Shown here: positions 14,056 to 35,415 of the stretch, in pieces | Numbering within the stretch: position 1 is the stretch's first letter | How the letters are laid out: each line of letters starts with the position of its first letter | Origin: Escherichia coli | GTDB lineage: Bacteria > Pseudomonadota > Gammaproteobacteria > Enterobacterales > Enterobacteriaceae | Reading direction: 5' to 3' (one strand) | Length of the DNA: 64,000 bases | Assembly: GCF_050320075.1 (NCBI RefSeq) | Contig: NZ_CP190018.1 | Program-made: the position numbers and the translations under genes | The notes under the pieces: generated by a model | Databases searched by the model: none | What the model was told of the DNA's origin: nothing | What the model saw: only the letters and a program-made list of their open reading frames with translations

Positions 14056-17736
<3,681 letters not shown>

Positions 17737-17762
<26 letters not shown>

Positions 17763-18282
17763 TCAGCAACCCCGGTATCAGTTCATCCAGCGCGGCTGCT
17801 TTGTTCATGGCTTTGATGATATCCCGTTTCAGGAAATCAACATGTCGGTTTTCCAGTTCCGGAAAACGCCGCTGTACCGAGAGAGGGATCCCGTCAAGAA
17901 TACTGGCAATTTCACCTGCGATCCGTGACAGCACGAAAGTACAGAATGCGGTTTCCACCACCTCTGCGGAGTCTCTGGCATTCTTCAGCTCCTGTGCGTC
18001 GGCCTGCGCACGCGTAAGTCGATGGCGTTCGTACTCAATAGTCCCAGGCTGGAGATCTGCCTCACTGGCAGCCCTGTAATCCTCAACCTCTTTACGGAGT
18101 TTTTCATTTTCGATATCAGCTTCCCTCTGCGCATACCACTGAATTGCCATGGCGGTATCAAATACAGATTCAACGCCCTTACCACCTCCGGAGACGCAAG
18201 GGAGTCCCTGAGACTGCCAGCGTTCAATCGTTCGCGGATCCACGTTGAAAATTTCGGCAAGTTTCTTTTTATTAACCTTCAT
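17737..18282 (-). CDS. Nu1: Terminase small subunit Nu1 with a divergent (phage-21-like) N-terminal DNA-binding domain
   Basis: 181-aa ORF; C-terminal ~100 aa match lambda Nu1 ([54 protein letters not shown]...) while the first ~80 aa ([54 protein letters not shown]) differ from lambda as I recall it. Confidence 0.9.
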
Positions 18283-18299
18283 GAAACAGTCTCACAATA

Positions 18300-18420
18300 A
18301 ATACAGGGGCCGACATGAAAGTGCCCGAAAATGACTTTTTTAGGCGTTTTCATGTCGGACCTTTTACGGATTCGATATTAGAAAAAACAAATAGTTATGT
18401 TCGAGAAGTACCGACATGAT
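18300..18420. promoter_or_regulatory. cosB: three R-type repeats (CCGACATG at 18310..18317 and 18411..18418, inverted copy CATGTCGG at 18351..18358); putative small-terminase binding sites
   Basis: Three copies of an 8-bp motif, the middle one inverted, between cosN and the Nu1 start; sequence differs from lambda cosB. Confidence 0.6.
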
Positions 18421-18458
18421 TTTCCCCAGAAAATTTTCATAAATAGCGAAAACCCGCG

Positions 18459-18470
18459 AGGTCGCCGCCC
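18459..18470. other. cosN cohesive-end site (12-nt overhang GGGCGGCGACCT on the minus strand)
   Basis: Plus strand AGGTCGCCGCCC is the reverse complement of the lambda cohesive end; flanking sequence (CGCGGGTTTTCGCTATTTATGAAAATTTTC on minus) matches the lambda left end and the sequence to the right matches the lambda right end. Confidence 0.85.
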
Positions 18471-18669
18471 CGTAACCTGTCGGATCACCGGAAAGGACCC
18501 GTAAAGCGATAATGATTATCATCTACATATCACAACGTGCGTGGAGGCCATCAAACCACGTCAAATAATCAATTATGACGCAGGTATCGTATTAATTGAT
18601 CTGCATCAACCTAACGTAAAAACAACTTCAGACAATACAAATCAGCGACACTGAATACAGGGCAACCTC

Positions 18670-18903
18670 ATGTCAACGAAGAACAGAACCCGCAGAACAA
18701 CAACCCGCAACATCCGCTTTCCTAACCAAATGATTGAACAAATTAACATCGCTCTTGTTCAAAAAGGGTCCGGGAATTTCTCAGCCTGGGTCATTGAAGC
18801 CTGCCGCCGGAGACTGTGCTCAGAAAAAAGAGTTTCGCCTGAAGCAAACAAAGAAAAGAGTGACATTACTGAATTGCTCAGAAAACAGGTCAGACCAGAT
18901 TGA
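18670..18903 (+). CDS. YlcI-like small prophage protein
   Basis: 77-aa ORF MSTKNRTRRTTTRNIRFPNQMIEQINIALVQKGSGNFSAWVIEACRRRL... resembles the DLP12 ylcI product. Confidence 0.6.
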   Translation: MSTKNRTRRTTTRNIRFPNQMIEQINIALVQKGSGNFSAWVIEACRRRLCSEKRVSPEANKEKSDITELLRKQVRPD

Positions 18904-18960: not shown

Positions 18961-19371
18961 ATGGCTCAGATTGCCATTTTTAAACAAATATTCGATAAAG
19001 TGCGAAATAATTTAAACTATCACTGGTTTTATTCTGAACTAAAACGTCACAATGTCTCACATTACATTTACTATTTAGCCACAGAGAATATTCATCTTGT
19101 TCTTGAAAACGATAATACGGTTTTAATAAAAGGACAGGGTAAGGTTGTAAATGTAAGATTTTCAAAAAATAAATGCCTTATAGAAGCCACCTTAAAAGGA
19201 TTCAAATCAGGAGAGTTATCATTTTACGAATACAGGAAAAATCTTGCTACAGCAGGGGTTTTCAGATGGATTACAAATATCCACGAAAACAAAAGGTATT
19301 ACTATACCTTTGATAATTCATTACTCTTTACTGAGAACATTCAGAACACTACACAAATATTTCCGCACTAA
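18961..19371 (+). CDS. YbcV-like prophage protein (DUF1398 family)
   Basis: [58 protein letters not shown]... resembles DLP12 YbcV; low GC. Confidence 0.65.
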
Positions 19372-19678: not shown

Positions 19679-20155
19679 TTATCTGAGGCATTGCTCTCGA
19701 ATGTATAGCTGTGCCCCTTCAAGTTGTTTTTGCATTATTATCAGTCGCGCTCTGAGGGTGAAATAATCCCGTTCAGCGGTGTCTGCCAATCGGGGGGAGG
19801 CTGCATTATCCACGCCGGAGGCGGTGGTGGCTTCACGCACTGACTGACAGACTGCTTTGATGTGCAACCGACGACGACCAGCGGCAACATCATCACGCAG
19901 AGCATCATTTTCAGCTTTCGCATCAGCTAACTCCTTCGTGTATTTTGCATCGAGCGCAGCAACATCACGCTGACGCATCTGCATGTCAGTAATTGCCGCG
20001 TTCGCCAGCTTCAGTTCTCTGGCATTTTTGTCGCGCTGGGCTTTGTAGGTAATGGCGTTATCACGGTAATGATTAACAGCCCATGACAGGCAGACGATGA
20101 TGCAGATAACCAGAGCGGAGATAATCGCGGTTACTCTGTTCATTGCTGACCCCAC
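19679..20155 (-). CDS. Rz: Spanin inner-membrane subunit Rz (i-spanin); likely true start near 20143
   Basis: (...)[59 protein letters not shown]... matches lambda Rz. Confidence 0.9.
19741..19923 (-). CDS. Rz1: Spanin outer-membrane lipoprotein Rz1 (o-spanin), embedded in Rz in the +1 frame
   Basis: 60-aa [63 protein letters not shown]: lipobox LVVVGC and proline-rich segment as in lambda Rz1. Confidence 0.88.
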
Positions 20156-20637
20156 AAACAGATTTCACGCTCAATCTCACGACGAGTCATGAGACCTTTC
20201 CATTGCTTACCGCCAGCATATGTCCAGCGACGTAACTGATCACATGCGCCTTTGATATCGCCCTGGTTTATTTTGCGAAGAAGCGTCGATGTTCTGAAAT
20301 TGCCAGCACCCACGTTGTAAACGAATGAGTAAAGAGCGCCGCGCGTTGTTTCCGGTATATCGACTTTGATGTACGGGTTAATTTGTCTGGCGACAGTGGC
20401 AAGGTCTTTATTCAAGAGTGCTTTGCATTCTGCTTTGGTATACGTTTTACCGAGCATGATGTCTTTTCCTGTATGCCCGTGACATACAGTCCATACACCA
20501 ACAATATCTTTGTATGGTATGTAGCTGACACCCTCCAGACCATCGTTACCACCTGGACCAGTGATTAACACTGATGCTATAGCAATTGCTCCGCCACCAA
20601 TAGCAGCAGCAACGGCTTTTCGTAATGATGGAGGCAT
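20140..20637 (-). CDS. R: SAR endolysin (T4-lysozyme-family muramidase with N-terminal signal-arrest-release domain), phage-21 R type
   Basis: 165-aa [60 protein letters not shown]...: Gly/Ala-rich weakly hydrophobic N-terminus followed by a lysozyme core; not the lambda R transglycosylase. Confidence 0.88.
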
Positions 20638-20852
20638 TATTCACCTCTCGCAGCCTTGCGCTTATCTTCTTTAATCTTGAAATAAAGGTTTGTCAGGTAC
20701 GTCAGCAGGCCAAATACCAAGCTACCCAGCACACCTATTGCTGCCCACTGTGAGGGCGTGACTTTATCGAGCAGCTGTAAAAACCAGTAGCCAGCACTGC
20801 CTGCGGAGGTGCCGTAGGCAATGCCCGTTGTTAACTTATCCATGGATTTCAT
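20637..20852 (-). CDS. S: Pinholin S (class II, two TMDs, dual-start motif MKSM), phage-21 S type
   Basis: 71-aa [74 protein letters not shown] directly upstream of the SAR endolysin. Confidence 0.88.
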
Positions 20853-21045: not shown

Positions 21046-21627
21046 TCATGTCTTTTCTAAAAAAAATCTTGATGAATATTGATGGGGAGGAACACCAAAA
21101 TATCTTCTGAAAACACTTACAAAATATGACGTGTTTTCATAACCGCATATCTCAGCAACTTTTCCAACAGAATATAAATTGTAGCTTAATAACCTTTCCG
21201 CCATCACCATTCGCTCTTCAAGAATTAACTTACTAAATGATAAGCCTTCGTGCTTTAATTTTCTTTTTAACAGACTTTCACTCAGATACAGTCTTGAAGA
21301 TATATCACAAAGTCTCCATGCTGCAGATATATCCGTGTGAATAATAGCCTTAACTTTACTTCCTAAACTATTAAGACATCCAAATAAAAAACTTTGCACT
21401 ATTTTCTCTGAAGATAAGATAGCAAGACATGCAAGTGATATTTGATTTCTAACAAAATCCACAGTTCTGCCATCACAATTCAAGCATGCAATCAAGTTCT
21501 TTAACAATGAAAAATCTTCACATTCCACCATCAAGTATGCCGGATAAAACCTTCTTACAGAAAAAGGTGAGAGTGTGTTGCTTTTAAAGAAATCATTAAC
21601 TGTTTTCTCTTCAACATCTACGATCAT
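21046..21627 (-). CDS. AraC-family transcriptional regulator (prophage cargo)
   Basis: 193-aa ORF with C-terminal AraC-type HTH region (...LSYNLYSVGKVAEICGYENTSYFVSVFRRYFGVPPHQY); ~30% GC. Confidence 0.75.
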   Translation of the reverse strand: MIVDVEEKTVNDFFKSNTLSPFSVRRFYPAYLMVECEDFSLLKNLIACLNCDGRTVDFVRNQISLACLAILSSEKIVQSFLFGCLNSLGSKVKAIIHTDISAAWRLCDISSRLYLSESLLKRKLKHEGLSFSKLILEERMVMAERLLSYNLYSVGKVAEICGYENTSYFVSVFRRYFGVPPHQYSSRFFLEKT

Positions 21628-22121
21628 TGCATGATCTATATTTGATGAAAAAAATCTTTTAAATTTTAATCAATGAGAACAGCACTTCCTTTTTTAAATA
21701 AAATATCTTCTTTACCAATTCGGACATCAAACGAGTTCAACACCAAAATGATAGAACATATGTATGGCATATTATCCACCTGATATCATTGGGGTTACAC
21801 CAAGTAAGTATAGGTGGAAAATCAATATTCGCCAGTTCAACAATAAGGAAAATCTCATTGCATCACAAGTATAAAATTATGTATTTAACTCACAAAGACA
21901 AATTATTAAACCAATCTGTTATATTATATATAGCTGCGTGGAATCATAATATTATATATTTTGACTGGCATGTTTACCAACTTTAAGTTGCATCTCAATG
22001 GTTTCTTCAGCGTAAACAGAGTTTTTATACAAACTGACACTCTGGGTATCATAGTGTAGTTTTTACGATTGTAAATATCCTGCATGCAGGAACTCATCCT
22101 TTTGGATGATATCGCATACAA

Positions 22122-23865: not shown

Positions 23866-24575
23866 CGCCTATAAGGCTCTCTTACCAGCCGCGCCCTAAC
23901 AGGCGCACACGATCTGACATTTGCATCCAACTTCGTTACTTACGGCCCGTAAACGGGCTGCCCGGATAGGGAATCGATAACTGCTCTCCCATTTTATCCT
24001 CTTCAAGCTGGTGCTTTATGTAGTCCTGTATCTTCGCCGTGTTCTTACCCACCGTATCGACATAGTACCCTCGGCACCAGAACTCCCTGTTTCTGTATTT
24101 GAATTTCAAATCCCCAAACTGCTCGTAAAGCATCAGACTGCTTTTCCCTTTCAGATATCCCATAAAGCCGGATACGCTCATTTTGGGTGGGATTTCCACA
24201 AGCATATGGATATGATCTGCGCAGCACTCTGCTTCCAGAATCCGTACGCTTTTCCACTCACACAGCTTTCTCAAAATACTGCCTATCGCCCTACGCTTCT
24301 CTCCGTAAAACGCCAGTCTTCGGTATTTCGGCGCAAAAACTATGTGATATTTACAGTTCCAGCGGGTGTGCACTAAGCTCTTTTCGTCCCCCATTGGGAC
24401 CCCCTTTTGATTTCTTGTTTGACACTTGCAGTTGCCAGACCGCAAGGTGTTTTAACAAATCAAAAGGGGTTTTAATAACTGGCTCAAAGCTGAAAGCTTT
24501 CCGGAACCCCCAGCCTAGCTGGGGGTTTTCTGTGCACAAAAAAACCAGCCTTTGGGGAGGCTGGCTAAATCAGGA
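23866..24575 (-). mobile_element. IS200 insertion sequence (boundaries approximate)
   Basis: Contains the IS200 TnpA gene plus end hairpins (GGCCCGTAAACGGGC near 23945; CCCCCAGCCTAGCTGGGGG and CCAGCCTTTGGGGAGGCTGG near 24500..24570). Confidence 0.8.
23936..24394 (-). CDS. tnpA: IS200/IS605-family Y1 (HUH) transposase TnpA
   Basis: MGDEKSLVHTRWNCKYHIVFAPKYRRLAFYGEKRRAIGSILRKLCEWKSVRILEAECCADHIHMLVEIPP... matches IS200 TnpA (152 aa). Confidence 0.93.
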   Translation of the reverse strand: MGDEKSLVHTRWNCKYHIVFAPKYRRLAFYGEKRRAIGSILRKLCEWKSVRILEAECCADHIHMLVEIPPKMSVSGFMGYLKGKSSLMLYEQFGDLKFKYRNREFWCRGYYVDTVGKNTAKIQDYIKHQLEEDKMGEQLSIPYPGSPFTGRK

Positions 24576-24664: not shown

Positions 24665-25057
24665 TTATTTCGAACAATCAGCATCCATCTCCAATCGGAG
24701 ATCCAACACCATCAGCATACCCTCCACTACGCCCTCAGCTTTCTGGAGCATCCTGCCAACCCAACAATCAGATCGCCCATGCTTACGTGCAAGCGCCATA
24801 AAAGTCATGCCGCCGACATAATAGTCCACCAATAAATCATGCAAATCGCTGTTGTTCTTTTTCAGACGGGCCATGCACCCGCAAATGATCATCGCGTCAT
24901 CGTCACAACATTGTGGGCGAGATTTTACTTTTGAAGGAATTAATCCCTTAAAACCGGCGGCAATGGACGACCAGGTCACATCTTCATGATTATTAGCCGC
25001 CCACGCTCCCCAACGCTCAAGAACCATCTGAATATCACGCATCAACTTACTCCACAA
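24665..25057 (-). CDS. Late-gene antiterminator Q (phage-82 / DLP12 QuuD type); possible start at the MRDIQM Met
   Basis: ORF (MWSKL)[62 protein letters not shown]... resembles QuuD. Confidence 0.8.
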
Positions 25058-27905: not shown

Positions 27906-29432
27906 TCAAAAATAAACCTCACCATCAACCATATATTTGAGAGTACTTATCGCCTGCTGGGCGGATATTATTTTCATTAAAGGATAGTGTTTAAAAACAA
28001 TGCCATTCATAAAATAGATATCACAGGTTTTATTATCTGTATTGATTATGATTTTTTCGAATGTTTTATAGGCAAGTGTACGACATAGCTCTCGCCCATT
28101 TTTACTGGTTAAGTCAATAGCATGAAAATCACCAAGTGAACTCACCGCTTTACTCTTCAAAGTTTTTAATGATACAGAAGCCCTTCGTAATTCCTTATCT
28201 AATACTCTGATTTTTTCTGCTATAGCGGTAACTTCAGGCGCAACAGATAATGCAGCAATTAAATTATTAATTTTCATCTGGAGCTCAATAATTTTCAACT
28301 CTAAAGTTTCATTAGCATCTTTCTTGTTTTCAACTGGTTGGATTTTACTACAATTAAAAAGCAACTCATTAATGATATTATAATCAACCAAATCTCTCTT
28401 TATTGATGGCCTGTCACATCGATGCAGTCTTCTCATCGGACAAACATAATAGCCATGCAAACTTCCAGATACCGCATGAACAATCATGGTATTACCACAA
28501 GCCTCGCACTTCATAACTGTTCGAAGTAGATTTATCAACATAGGATTTTTGCTACTATTGCTAATACCAAAAGGTGCCAACCGAATTTCCTGCACAGCGT
28601 AAAACAAATCATCTGATATGACTCTGGGATAATAGCCAGCGATTTCACTTATTCCTTTACCTCTTGCACGATATGAAGGTACGCATATACCTATCAGAGC
28701 TTTATTCGCTAATAATTTTTCAATTACAGAAGGTCCCCATGCACTTTCTTTTCCTGAGAAATTCTTTACAGCATGATCATTTAAATACTTGGCTATTGCA
28801 TTCAATGAGCGCCTTTCCATCCTGAGTTTAAAAATTAGCTCAATAGTTTTCACCCTGTCGGGGTCTGGAACAAAAGCCGTTCTTTTGTCATCCAATGAGA
28901 GCCATCTCGGACAAGACGCCGTCATAATCGTGCCTGACTCCAGTGCATCCTGCCGTTTTTTCTTCCATGATAATTTAACCCGACTTGACTTTATCTCGCT
29001 TTCTTCATTTGCCCTTTGTGCTATAAGTATGGCTTTTATTAATGAATATGGCTCATTCAATGAGTCAATATTATAGACTGTATTATCGCAAAGAGTTATA
29101 ACATCAATACCGTGATTCAAAATCAATTTCAGACGCTCAATCGCTTCACCGACTTTTTCTCTTGAAAGTCTGTCCAGACTTTCAACTAACAATGTAGTCC
29201 CTGGCAATATATAACCATGTTCTATAGCATCTAAAAATTCCGAAAAAGCTCCTGATTGTGCATGCTTTCCATTGAATGCGCTTAACCCCAAATCTTCATA
29301 CGTTACGGTATCAAGGTAATAATCACTATTTACCTTTAGCCATTCAGTAATAAGCCTTCTCTGGCGGTTTAATGAATCACCAGACATCTGACCTGGTGAT
29401 GAAAATCGCATATATGCTATGGCTTTTTTCAT
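27906..29432 (-). CDS. Large serine recombinase (resolvase/invertase catalytic domain plus recombinase and Cys-rich zinc-ribbon-like domains), DLP12 YbcK type
   Basis: 508-aa ORF MKKAIAYMRFSSPGQMSGDSLNRQRRLITEWL... (catalytic Ser in RFSSPGQ) with downstream CEACGN...CPMRRLHRCDRP cysteine cluster; low GC. Confidence 0.85.
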   Translation of the reverse strand: MKKAIAYMRFSSPGQMSGDSLNRQRRLITEWLKVNSDYYLDTVTYEDLGLSAFNGKHAQSGAFSEFLDAIEHGYILPGTTLLVESLDRLSREKVGEAIERLKLILNHGIDVITLCDNTVYNIDSLNEPYSLIKAILIAQRANEESEIKSSRVKLSWKKKRQDALESGTIMTASCPRWLSLDDKRTAFVPDPDRVKTIELIFKLRMERRSLNAIAKYLNDHAVKNFSGKESAWGPSVIEKLLANKALIGICVPSYRARGKGISEIAGYYPRVISDDLFYAVQEIRLAPFGISNSSKNPMLINLLRTVMKCEACGNTMIVHAVSGSLHGYYVCPMRRLHRCDRPSIKRDLVDYNIINELLFNCSKIQPVENKKDANETLELKIIELQMKINNLIAALSVAPEVTAIAEKIRVLDKELRRASVSLKTLKSKAVSSLGDFHAIDLTSKNGRELCRTLAYKTFEKIIINTDNKTCDIYFMNGIVFKHYPLMKIISAQQAISTLKYMVDGEVYF

Positions 29433-29687
29433 GGTGACACCTGCTAAAGTATGCTTTTATAAACCTTAGTGGTGAGATATGATTTTTGTTTAATTTTTAT
29501 TTAAAAAGACAATTAAGGTCACATTATCTTGAATATACAACAATAATCGTATTGCAATTTTCTTACACCATAATCTTGAAAGCACAAAAGAATGAATAAA
29601 AACTAAAGACATTAACAAAAAGCATAAAACGAGGCCCATATAAATATACGAACCTCCATATTTTAGTCGTTTAAAAACAAATTATTT

Positions 29688-30020
29688 TTAATGTGGCGTG
29701 CTTCGTGACAATAAATTAATAACCAACACACCGGCACAAATCAACATCATGCCTATAATGGCTGGCAGGTCCAATCGTTGGCCGAAAAATCCCCATGATA
29801 GTAAGCTAATCAGGACAATACCGACTCCTGACCAGATAGCATAAGCAATCCCTGTAGGAATATAAGCCAGCGTCTGAGCTAATAACCAGAATGATGCACA
29901 ATAACAAATAATTGTACCAACAGATGGCCATAACCGTGTAAAACCTTCTGAAAACTTCATTAAGGTTGTACCAATGACCTCTGCAAGTATTGCACCACCA
30001 AGATAAATATAAGGATTCAT
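29688..30020 (-). CDS. emrE: Small multidrug resistance (SMR) efflux protein EmrE
   Basis: MNPYIYLGGAILAEVIGTTLMKFSEGFTRLWPSVGTIICYCASFWLLAQTLAYIPTGIAYAIWSGVGIVLISLLSWGFFGQRLDLPAIIGMMLICAGVL... essentially identical to E. coli EmrE (110 aa). Confidence 0.95.
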   Translation of the reverse strand: MNPYIYLGGAILAEVIGTTLMKFSEGFTRLWPSVGTIICYCASFWLLAQTLAYIPTGIAYAIWSGVGIVLISLLSWGFFGQRLDLPAIIGMMLICAGVLVINLLSRSTPH

Positions 30021-30087
30021 AGCATATTCTTTCCTGTTCAAACTGGAGAGAATTGTACTACAGTTTGAACTCAACTCACCTGTTTCA

Positions 30088-30390
30088 TCATTGTGTACCC
30101 ATTGATGTTCTTTTATATACCCTCAATACCCGTTTCATCGCGGCACTCTGGCGACACTCCTTAAAAATCAAATTCGTGCTCACCTTTCCTTCCCATTCTT
30201 CTCTGGTAGCGAACCGATAATACACCGTTCGCCAGACCTTACCATCAACGACCAGGATTCCTGCCCGCGCCATTTTAGCCGCAGCCTGATTTATGCTGGT
30301 TACCGTTGCGCCTGTTACCGCGGCAACGTCCTGCGCACAGAATTTCTTATGAGTCCCCAGGTAATGAATAATTGCCTCTTTGCCCGTCAT
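30088..30390 (-). CDS. ren: Ren protein
   Basis: 100-aa ORF MTGKEAIIHYLGTHKKFCAQDVAAVTGATVTSINQAAAKMARAGILVVDGKVWRTVYYRFATREE... matches lambda Ren. Confidence 0.9.
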   Translation of the reverse strand: MTGKEAIIHYLGTHKKFCAQDVAAVTGATVTSINQAAAKMARAGILVVDGKVWRTVYYRFATREEWEGKVSTNLIFKECRQSAAMKRVLRVYKRTSMGTQ

Positions 30391-32904: not shown

Positions 32905-33008
32905 TTCCTATTGGTATTACAATGAATGGATAATAGCAATGCGTATTAATCCAATCAATAGCAAAACGTGTTTTGACCATCAATACGCAAGCGTATAAAT
33001 TAAAACTT
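32905..33008. promoter_or_regulatory. Immunity-region divergent promoter/operator region (OR equivalent) with ATACGC/GCGTAT half-sites including the palindrome ATACGCAAGCGTAT (32983..32996)
   Basis: AT-rich 104-bp spacer between divergent cro-like and cI-like genes; repeated half-sites seen in sequence; operator assignment is inferred. Confidence 0.5.
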
Positions 33009-33701
33009 ATGAAAAAAGAAACTCTTGCTGATCGCTTAAACCTAGCGATGGAACAATCTGGAATGTCTCAAGGCGCTCTTGCAAAGGCGTCTGGCGTAGC
33101 TCAACCCACAATCTGGAGACTGACAAGCGGCAACGCACGCGGCTCAACAAAAATTGTTGAAATAGCTAATGCATTGGGTGTTCGAACAGAGTGGCTCTCA
33201 TCAGGCATAGGCCCGATGAGAAATGACGGTCAACAATCAGGGAAGCCTGCTGTCAACCATTCCAAATACTTCAAAATTGACGTTCTTGATATAGAAGTCA
33301 GTGCTGGGCCGGGTGTCATCAACCGTGAGTTTGTAGAAGTCCTACGCTCGGTTGAGTACTCGTTTGACGATGCTCGTCACATGTTCGATGGCAGGAAGGC
33401 AGAAAATATCCGCATCATTAACGTACGCGGTGACAGCATGTCAGGAACGATCGAACCAGGTGATCTTCTGTTCGTTGATATCACTGTTAAATCTTTCGAC
33501 GGTGATGGTATCTATGCGTTTCTGTACGACGACACAGCCCATGTAAAGCGCCTGCAAATGATGAAGGATAAGCTGCTGGTTATCTCTGATAACAAGAGCT
33601 ACTCACCGTGGGACCCGATCGAAAAAGACGAAATGAATCGGGTATTTATATTTGGGAAAGTTATTGGGAGTATGCCACAGACATATAGAAAACATGGGTA
33701 G
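33009..33701 (+). CDS. CI-type prophage repressor (N-terminal HTH, C-terminal S24 LexA-like autopeptidase domain)
   Basis: MKKETLADRLNLAMEQSGMSQGALAKASGVAQPTIWRLTSGN... plus C-terminal RGDSMSGTIEPGDLLFV...VKRL motifs and a candidate Ala-Gly cleavage site (VSAGPG); not lambda cI. Confidence 0.88.
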   Translation: MKKETLADRLNLAMEQSGMSQGALAKASGVAQPTIWRLTSGNARGSTKIVEIANALGVRTEWLSSGIGPMRNDGQQSGKPAVNHSKYFKIDVLDIEVSAGPGVINREFVEVLRSVEYSFDDARHMFDGRKAENIRIINVRGDSMSGTIEPGDLLFVDITVKSFDGDGIYAFLYDDTAHVKRLQMMKDKLLVISDNKSYSPWDPIEKDEMNRVFIFGKVIGSMPQTYRKHG

Positions 33702-33807: not shown

Positions 33808-35415
33808 ATGGATATGTCAAAAAAAATTTTTGAATTCAAAAATTACCCAATAGTCTTTATTGGCTCAGGCATTTCAAAAAGATATTTAGAGAACTACCCA
33901 ACGTGGGAAGAGCTATTAAACGAGTATTGGAAAATAACAAATCCCACAAATGATTTCTATAGTTATCTTTTAACAATAAAAGAATCACATAAAAATAACA
34001 GTGATAATGATATCGATCATAAGATTTATACAGAGGCAGCAAGTAAAATTGAAAATGATTACAATCTATTGTTTAGGACTGGCAAATTAAAATTAAATGG
34101 ACTAGATGCCAAGAGGGTTTTTAGTGAAGATATTTCACCATTTAAATACGCCATATGCCAAAGATTTTCTAATAACACAATCAGAAAGGATGTAAATCTT
34201 GATGAATTAGCATCATTTAAAACATTAATAAAAAAGGCCAAGATAATCATCACTACAAATTATGATGCTTTCATAGAAAATTTACTTCAAGAGCAAAATG
34301 TAACTCCAAAACTCTATATTGGAAATAATGGTTTTTTCGAAGATACTATTGGCTGGAGTGAGTTATACAAAATACATGGTGATATAAAGGATCCACACTC
34401 AATAATCATAAATAAAGATGATTACGAAAAATATGACAACAAATCTATACTCATTAGTGCCAAGATACTATCTAACATGATTAAAAATCCAATAGTTTTT
34501 CTTGGATATTCTTTAACTGACAGGAATGTAAAGAAACTTCTTTCTGATTTTTCCTCACAACTACCTAGAGAAGATGGTCGAAAATCAGCTGAAAGAATAA
34601 TTTTGATTGAATATAAAGAGAATGAACAGGAAGTAGTACCAAAACAGATTACCGATCAACAGCTACAAATTACATATACATCTGTTAAAACAGATAACTA
34701 TAAACAGATCTATGATGAGATCAGTGCTGTTGATGAAGGGCTCTCACCTTATGATGTTTTAAGGTATCAAAGAGCCATTAAAACACTTATCATTAATGAG
34801 GGTGAAAAAGGGCACTTAGATACTCTATTGGTTTCACCTTCTGACTTAGACAGACTTGAAGAAAGTGTTAAACAAGGAAAAAATTTAGTTGTTGCTCTAG
34901 GCGATAAAAAGTATGTATTCACACAAGTTAAAGAAATAAATTATCTTGAAGACTACTTATTTAATAAAAATGAAATATCTAATAAATTAGCTATAGATTT
35001 CATATTAGGTTCAGTAAACTCATTACAACTTCCATTTTCAAAAACTATAACCTCATGTAATTTGAAAGAGTTAAGTTTGCCAGCTAAATATGTGTTAAAA
35101 CTAAATCAACGCATTGAACGCCACGGAAAACTAGACGACTTGCTCAATAAAATCACCTTAGATAAAATCAATGCAAATAAAATTTACACCAACATCAAAG
35201 ATATAAAGGATGCAAAGTTCAAAAAGTACAAAGAATTGTCTATAGTCATTAAGAACATAAAAAATATCCCCAAAGAGGAGATTGAAGATTATGTTAAAAA
35301 AGAAGCGTTTGTTCAATTCAAGGCATGCGACGTTGACAATTTAAAAACCCAGTATAGGAAACTATTTCTTGCCTACGACTTGTTGATTCATGGAAATGTT
35401 GAAAAGATAAATTAA
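33808..35415 (+). CDS. SIR2-like (sirtuin-family, SIR2_2-type) domain protein with uncharacterised C-terminal half; candidate single-gene anti-phage defence protein in the rexAB-equivalent position
   Basis: 535-aa ORF, about 28-30% GC; motifs FIGSGISK (res 17-24), IIITTNYD (N151), YKIHGD (H190), IVFLGYSLTD (229-238) with Asn-His spacing of 39 as in defence-associated SIR2 domains; directly downstream and co-oriented with the repressor. Confidence 0.7.
   Translation: MDMSKKIFEFKNYPIVFIGSGISKRYLENYPTWEELLNEYWKITNPTNDFYSYLLTIKESHKNNSDNDIDHKIYTEAASKIENDYNLLFRTGKLKLNGLDAKRVFSEDISPFKYAICQRFSNNTIRKDVNLDELASFKTLIKKAKIIITTNYDAFIENLLQEQNVTPKLYIGNNGFFEDTIGWSELYKIHGDIKDPHSIIINKDDYEKYDNKSILISAKILSNMIKNPIVFLGYSLTDRNVKKLLSDFSSQLPREDGRKSAERIILIEYKENEQEVVPKQITDQQLQITYTSVKTDNYKQIYDEISAVDEGLSPYDVLRYQRAIKTLIINEGEKGHLDTLLVSPSDLDRLEESVKQGKNLVVALGDKKYVFTQVKEINYLEDYLFNKNEISNKLAIDFILGSVNSLQLPFSKTITSCNLKELSLPAKYVLKLNQRIERHGKLDDLLNKITLDKINANKIYTNIKDIKDAKFKKYKELSIVIKNIKNIPKEEIEDYVKKEAFVQFKACDVDNLKTQYRKLFLAYDLLIHGNVEKIN

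Follow-up and report, generated by a model that had tools for sequence, protein, structure and literature searches.

The window analysed here, a 64,000-nucleotide stretch of the Escherichia coli chromosome, contains a lambda-like prophage at attB-lambda that hosts the cos site and small terminase gene described below (Table 1). On the right, the int and xis genes of the prophage adjoin ybhC and the gal operon, and the region reads in the lambda orientation, on the minus strand, with lambda base pair N corresponding to window position 18471-N. The small terminase subunit (TerS/Nu1), the large subunit (TerL/gpA) and every annotated head and tail gene are intact open reading frames, and the lysis, replication and recombination genes of the prophage are intact as well. 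The window is 99.99% identical to the genome of E. coli YZLc1-3, except for one additional IS66 copy in the latter. Laboratory or vector contamination was considered and rejected, as the window is chromosomal, the prophage occupies attB-lambda with ybhC and gal as neighbours, the match to YZLc1-3 is nearly perfect, and the cos/TerS allele occurs in hundreds of wild isolates.

Table 1. Features of the cos-terminase region and neighbouring lysis genes, in window coordinates.
Feature	Coordinates	Strand	Remarks
Lysis genes S, R, Rz	20852..19679		
cosQ-side 'R4' box, CGGGTCCTTTCC, upstream of cosN	18490..18501	-	coordinates from M81255 annotation
cosN 12-nt cohesive end, GGGCGGCGACCT	18470..18459	-	lambda bp 1-12; direct sequence reading
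I2, IHF-type site adjoining cosN	18427..18441	-	coordinates from M81255 annotation
R3 (AATCATGTCGGTACTT), critical TerS binding site	18406..18421	-	lambda bp 50-65; G at bp 56 and bp 59
I1, IHF site between R3 and R2	18385..18399	-	homology to annotated phage 21 I1, 13/15
R2, inverted relative to R3 and R1	18348..18363	-	phage 21 16/16, lambda 9/16
R1	18305..18320	-	phage 21 14/16 ungapped positions; unlike lambda
CCGACATGA, first copy	18310-18318	+	
CCGACATGA, second copy	18350-18358	-	inverted
CCGACATGA, third copy	18411-18419	+	
TerS/Nu1	18282..17737	-	181 aa
TerS codons 1-68, 21-type winged-helix DNA-binding and dimerisation domain	18079..18282	-	
TerS recognition helix, aa 17-24	18234..18211	-	
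TerS wing, aa 31-39	18192..18166	-	
Right junction zone, TerS codons 65-73	18066..18090	-	25 bp; lambda and 21 sites interleaved
TerS codons 74-181, lambda-type oligomerisation and TerL-binding domains	17737..18065	-	
TerL/gpA	17762..15837	-	641 aa; intact ORF

Elsewhere in the prophage, an IS200-type (Y1 transposase) element lies at 23936-24445 (-), between Q (24665-25042) and the late/lysis genes, where it might affect late-gene expression; in YZLc1-3 the same element is split by a 2.7-kb IS66/ISCro1 copy (junction at 24124-24131) that is missing from the window. Upstream of the holin gene is an AraC-family HTH regulator gene (21046-21770, -) that RefSeq lists as frameshifted, the intact part of this pseudogene being a 193-aa ORF (21046-21627) with HTH_18/HTH_AraC domains. 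The interval between Rz and cos, which is occupied by bor in lambda and by iss in strain 144, holds opposite-strand YlcI/YnfO (DUF3950) and DUF1398 genes at 18670-18903 (+) and 18961-19371 (+), both moron-like cargo. Directly downstream of the ORF for a CI-like XRE repressor (32973-33701), in the immunity-region position of lambda rexAB, a gene at 33808-35415 (+) encodes a 535-aa SIR2_2-domain protein that matches the PADLOC candidate defence family PDC-S25 (E = 6e-236) and, more weakly, ThsA; it probably represents an anti-phage defence gene of the prophage. The nin region (~27906-30100, -) resembles that of the K-12 defective prophage DLP12 and includes the large serine recombinase ybcK (508 aa), as well as emrE (multidrug efflux), which was placed by its position in the YZLc1-3 annotation.

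The DNA around cosN is of lambda type. Over lambda positions -16 to +30 the window agrees with lambda at all 47 positions and with phage 21 at 43, and the 250 bp upstream of cos are 97-100% identical to lambda; the cohesive end with its conserved flanks marks a lambda-like cos, as an initial sequence-only reading of this DNA had asserted. The R4 box is the same in the window, lambda and phage 21 (12/12). Lambda and 21 have cosQ and cosN in common, but the preference of each for packaging its own DNA over that of the other exceeds 1000-fold (PMC4669245). To the right of cosN the window changes type. It was aligned with lambda (NC_001416, circularised) and with the phage 21 head-operon record M81255, in which R4, cosN, I2, R3, I1, R2, R1, I0 and gene 1 are annotated, and each position at which the two phages differ (an informative site) was scored by which of them the window matches. 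The mosaic can be read directly from this three-way alignment: lambda-type and 21-type sites number 12 and 1 in the left flank, 12 and 119 in an internal cassette, 117 and 5 in the C-terminal part of TerS, and 597 and 14 in gpA. The cassette is ~355 bp long, extends from window position 18426 to ~18070 (lambda bp 45 to TerS codon ~65-73), and comprises R3-I1-R2(inverted)-R1 together with the entire winged-helix DNA-binding domain of TerS. A sliding-window comparison gives the same partition, with 96-100% identity to lambda from at least 18760 down to 18427, 69-94% identity to phage 21 versus 42-66% to lambda from 18425 to ~18091, and lambda-type sequence again below ~18066, continuing across the remaining TerS codons and the whole of gpA. 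The last lambda-informative site (18427) and the first 21-informative site (18425) place the left junction at lambda bp 44-46, at the 3' edge of I2, after cosN/I2 and immediately before R3. The right junction is fuzzy; its informative sites comprise six of lambda type, four of 21 type and one matching neither, an interleaving that weakens the case for one clean crossover with a parent resembling 21. Over its whole length the cassette is ~87% identical to phage 21.

Within the cassette, the DNA between cosN and the TerS gene forms a complex cosB of the phage 21 kind. The nonamer CCGACATGA occurs exactly three times in the window, all within 110 bp, where ~0.72 copies would be expected by chance in the window as a whole, and a repeat finder shows the three to be parts of longer direct and inverted repeats. 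They fall on R1, R2 and R3 as annotated in M81255, which bears out the initial observation that three repeats, one of them inverted, separate cosN from Nu1 and differ from lambda cosB; the R sites have 6-10 of 16-18 positions in common with those of lambda. R3 matches phage 21 at 15 of 16 positions and lambda at 10 of 16, and the cosN-R3 interval aligns with both phages without a single indel. R2 pairs as an inverted repeat with R1 and with R3, and the order, orientation and distance from cosN of R3, R2 and R1 are all as in phage 21, with R2 inverted and R3 at bp 50-65. Between R3 and R2, the I1 site differs from the IHF consensus WATCAANNNNTTR at one position (18385-18397), a match that on its own is at chance level. 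A scan of the window for this consensus returned 79 matches versus ~61 expected, close to chance, and I1 is accordingly assigned by its homology to the site annotated in phage 21.

The small terminase protein is chimeric in the same sense. Its residues 1-68 are identical to phage 21 at 60 of 68 positions and to lambda at 41 of 68, whereas residues 73-181 agree with lambda at 107 of 109 positions and with phage 21 at 54 of 109. The sequence-only reading had taken the first ~80 residues of Nu1 to be divergent and the remainder to be lambda-like; the lambda-like remainder stands, and so does the divergence, although its extent was put slightly too high, as the switch occurs at codons ~65-73. The full protein scores 302.6 bits against the Pfam family Phage_Nu1 (PF07471; cutoff 30), covering profile positions 1-164 of 164, and is thus a member of this family. 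Its DNA-binding domain matches PDB entries 7lwr (aa 1-54), 1j9i and 6hn7, which cover both the lambda and the 21-type domains; in 1j9i the domain was solved as residues 1-68, the end of which coincides with the right junction. A literature search on entry 7LWR returned unrelated papers alone. The recognition helix (aa 17-24, TIERWQSQ) is identical to that of phage 21 (8/8) and matches lambda at five of eight positions. The wing reads SGGGKGVES, compared to SKGSKGIES in phage 21, and differs at three of nine residues (32, 34 and 37), with a further difference at residue 30; with its lambda-like GGGKG it is intermediate between the two phages.

The large subunit is that of lambda with one local exception. 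Outside an N-terminal patch gpA is 96-100% identical to lambda, and over residues 1-60 identity is 88% to lambda versus 53% to phage 21. Residues 8-37 (window ~17735-17650), in the TerS-binding region, carry seven substitutions relative to lambda that are not 21-like, and the same N-terminal variant is present in the three hybrid carriers examined (the window, strain 144 and O157:H7 ATCC 35150). The patch may reflect co-evolution with the hybrid lineage, or no more than linkage to it. The C-terminal domain of TerS and the N-terminal domain of TerL are of the same type, in a lambda-type TerS:TerL pairing.

The residues and base pairs reported to set packaging specificity lie in the cassette and are of 21 type. 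Feiss and co-workers trace the discrimination between lambda and 21 to recognition-helix residues 20 and 24 of TerS, together with bp 56 and 59 of R3, with lambda E24 clashing with the G:C pair at bp 56 of R3-21 (PMC4669245). TerS of the window has E20/S24, as in 21, versus Q20/E24 in lambda, and its R3 has G at bp 56 (18415) and at bp 59 (18412), as in M81255, where lambda has T and C. The dimer interface of the DNA-binding domain is formed by residues 11-13, 43, 47 and 51 (PMC9026076), and these are likewise all inside the cassette, so that the cosB sites, the DNA-reading head and its dimer contacts moved as one unit. From these features the locus is very probably a natural lambda/21 packaging hybrid, in which homologous recombination put a 21-type specificity cassette into a lambda backbone. 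This agrees with the swap of lambda versus 21 packaging specificity, within a lambda-like morphogenetic operon, that had been proposed at the outset; the alignment then suggested as a check shows Nu1 and cosB both to differ from lambda and to be of 21 type at 119 of the 131 informative cassette sites, and the published determinants concur. Recombination is stimulated next to cos, and lambda readily acquires functional nu1 alleles from defective prophages (PMC3945230).

By extension from the published genetics of the two phages, dimers of the 21-type winged helix would occupy R3 and R2 on either side of a bend that IHF induces at I1, with E20 and S24 of the recognition helix reading the CATGTCGG cores of the R sites. 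The lambda-type C-terminal half of the same protein would oligomerise and bind lambda-type gpA, and TerL would thereby come into position for nicking at the shared cosN and for docking with proheads of lambda type. Such a phage would be expected to package 21-type cos DNA, to discriminate against lambda cosB DNA, and to use the lambda head-assembly machinery. Phage 21 is reported to depend strictly on IHF, and by analogy a phage with this cassette probably has the same strict need. Its specificity may differ somewhat from that of 21, and equivalence is not guaranteed, given that three of nine wing residues differ and that R3 has A at bp 54 where phage 21 has G. A third packaging specificity, neither lambda nor 21 and created by co-variation of the TerS wing with R-site flanks, would be consistent with the four altered residues in and beside the wing, with the base at bp 54 of R3 (A in each of the three variant sequences that were examined, G in both phage 21 and MS7163, a strain with full 21-type gene 1), and with the proposed minor-groove contact of the wing, 5' of the contacts made in the major groove (PMC9026076). 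However, the recognition helix is identical to that of 21, the core CATGTCGG is the one used by 21 in R2 and R1, and both published determinant pairs are of 21 type, and we regard a third specificity as very unlikely.

A lambda/21 packaging hybrid of this kind has a laboratory precedent in lambda-21 hy51, which reportedly goes back to Frackman, Siegele and Feiss (1985, J Mol Biol 183:225). The hy51 phage combines cosB-21 and the 5' half of gene 1 with the 3' half of Nu1, and is viable and 21-specific (PMC4669245, PMC9026076); it has served as a 21-specific helper (PMC4669245) and in mapping the domains of TerS. Like hy51, the window joins a 21-type cosB and TerS N-terminus to a lambda-type TerS C-terminus, lambda gpA and, judging from the genes here, lambda heads. 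Unlike hy51, a laboratory recombinant in which the entire ~600 bp left end comes from phage 21, the window has only ~355 bp replaced, with the left junction inside cos (I2/R3) and the right one at TerS codons ~65-73; its cassette is ~13% divergent from phage 21, and its allele is natural and widespread. The possibility that the window is hy51 itself was rejected on the length of the cassette and its ~87% identity to phage 21, and is also countered by lambda-type bases at bp 18, 24 and 42-44 near cosN and by the occurrence of the allele in animal, water and human isolates. Compared to phage 21 (M81255), the locus shares the R4-cosN-I2-R3-I1-R2-R1 layout, the cosN-R3 spacing, the core of the R sites and the recognition helix, but has a TerS that is lambda-type after residue ~72, a lambda-type TerL, its own wing, A at R3 bp 54, and a diverged I0/RBS region (6/15). 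Compared to lambda (NC_001416), it shares cosQ and cosN, TerS from residue 73 onwards, gpA and the upstream right end (96-100%), and attB-lambda, but not the cosB R sites, the TerS DNA-binding domain with E20/S24, or G/G at R3 bp 56/59. The lambda-N15 hybrid hy4 and the Monarch-group prophages (PMC4669245) resemble it in that cosB and the N-terminal domain of TerS form an exchangeable unit on a lambda-type terminase; unlike the window, they belong to another specificity class, with N15-type R3 and recognition helix. The principle is textbook knowledge, the sequence is common in databases and the mechanism is known; our literature search found no paper explicitly describing a natural lambda/21 chimeric TerS.

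The hybrid is abundant in E. coli. When the 744-bp segment from cosN to the TerS stop codon was searched at a coverage of at least 80%, it was found in 539 of 5426 complete E. coli genomes (~10%), many of them matching at 100%. The cassette alone, at an identity of at least 95%, is present in 552 genomes, among them O157:H7 at 98%; O157:H7 ATCC 35150 has the same chimera, with a TerS that is 99% identical. At 80-90% identity the cassette query detects ~815 genomes, which are of true phage 21 type with full 21-type gene 1, e.g. strain MS7163. Members of the class at 95% identity or above that were examined have the wing SGGGKGVES in common, and O157:H7, strain 144 and IdasGreatGrand (PP925829) agree in left junction and TerS sequence, IdasGreatGrand being an isolated phage with the cassette at 99% identity and the sole such isolate in the phage collection; a literature search on IdasGreatGrand returned nothing specific. 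The genome NZ_CP123240.1, which matches the window, contains a second copy of the 744-bp hybrid in another prophage (~2,127,267-2,128,010, reported at 100%), and the two co-resident prophages would have one packaging specificity. The cassette is a distinct sub-lineage that occurs almost solely in hybrid form, and the hybrid is a widespread, stable allele as opposed to a one-off event in this strain.

This distribution also bears on whether the locus has lost its function in a defective prophage, so that the match between cosB and TerS serves no present purpose. Many lambdoid prophages of E. coli are defective (PMC2669165), and this one carries an AraC-type pseudogene, plus an IS200 element separating Q from the lysis genes. 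We nevertheless think decay unlikely, as TerS, TerL and all annotated head and tail ORFs are intact, the cos subsites are conserved, the cassette recurs at 99% identity in IdasGreatGrand, which was isolated as a plaque former, and the allele is 98-100% conserved across hundreds of genomes.

The donor of the cassette would have been not phage 21 itself but a relative ~13% diverged from it and endowed with the lambda-like GGGKG wing. The phage collection yielded no donor in which this exact cassette is joined to a non-lambda C-terminus, and the coverage and identity counts for E. coli (552 variant, 539 hybrid) indicate none on a non-lambda backbone. A different history can be drawn from the same data, in which the allele, instead of arising by a recent swap, would be an ancestral form belonging to an old and independent third lineage whose flanks were recently exchanged with lambda; lambda PaPa could then just as well be the recombinant. 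The cassette is 13% divergent from phage 21 while its flanks are 96-100% lambda, 539 of the 552 variant carriers (at least 95% identity) are hybrids, the left junction and TerS are the same in O157:H7, strain 144 and IdasGreatGrand, and the carriers examined have their own common gpA N-terminal variant, all of which would fit such an ancestry. On the other hand, two points of abrupt change in similarity still call for recombination at some stage of the ancestry, and the sub-lineage with full 21-type gene 1 is commoner (~815 genomes), which fits a cassette moving between backbones. We consider an old third lineage plausible, though short of probable; it would alter the history alone and leave the function unchanged.

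Rpp proteins of phage-inducible chromosomal islands (PICIs) bind the DNA-binding domain of TerS. It is conceivable, if doubtful, that the cassette variant is a separately maintained specificity allele, with the boundaries from bp 45 to the end of the DNA-binding domain marking the minimal natural exchange unit, and that selection keeps it by limiting cross-packaging of co-resident lambda-like prophages or by altering the interaction with Rpp. A slightly different specificity or selective maintenance is less favoured because the recognition helix and the R-site core are identical to those of 21. The locus opens no new mechanism. As a lambda/21 packaging hybrid it is the natural counterpart of the laboratory swap by which the functional domains of lambda terminase were defined, and it is widely spread, O157:H7 prophages included. 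Its junctions closely frame the specificity unit, which begins shortly after cosN and ends with the DNA-binding/dimerisation domain, and the allele is of use in annotating the cos specificity classes of E. coli prophages and in predicting which co-resident prophages, cosmids and PICIs a terminase packages.
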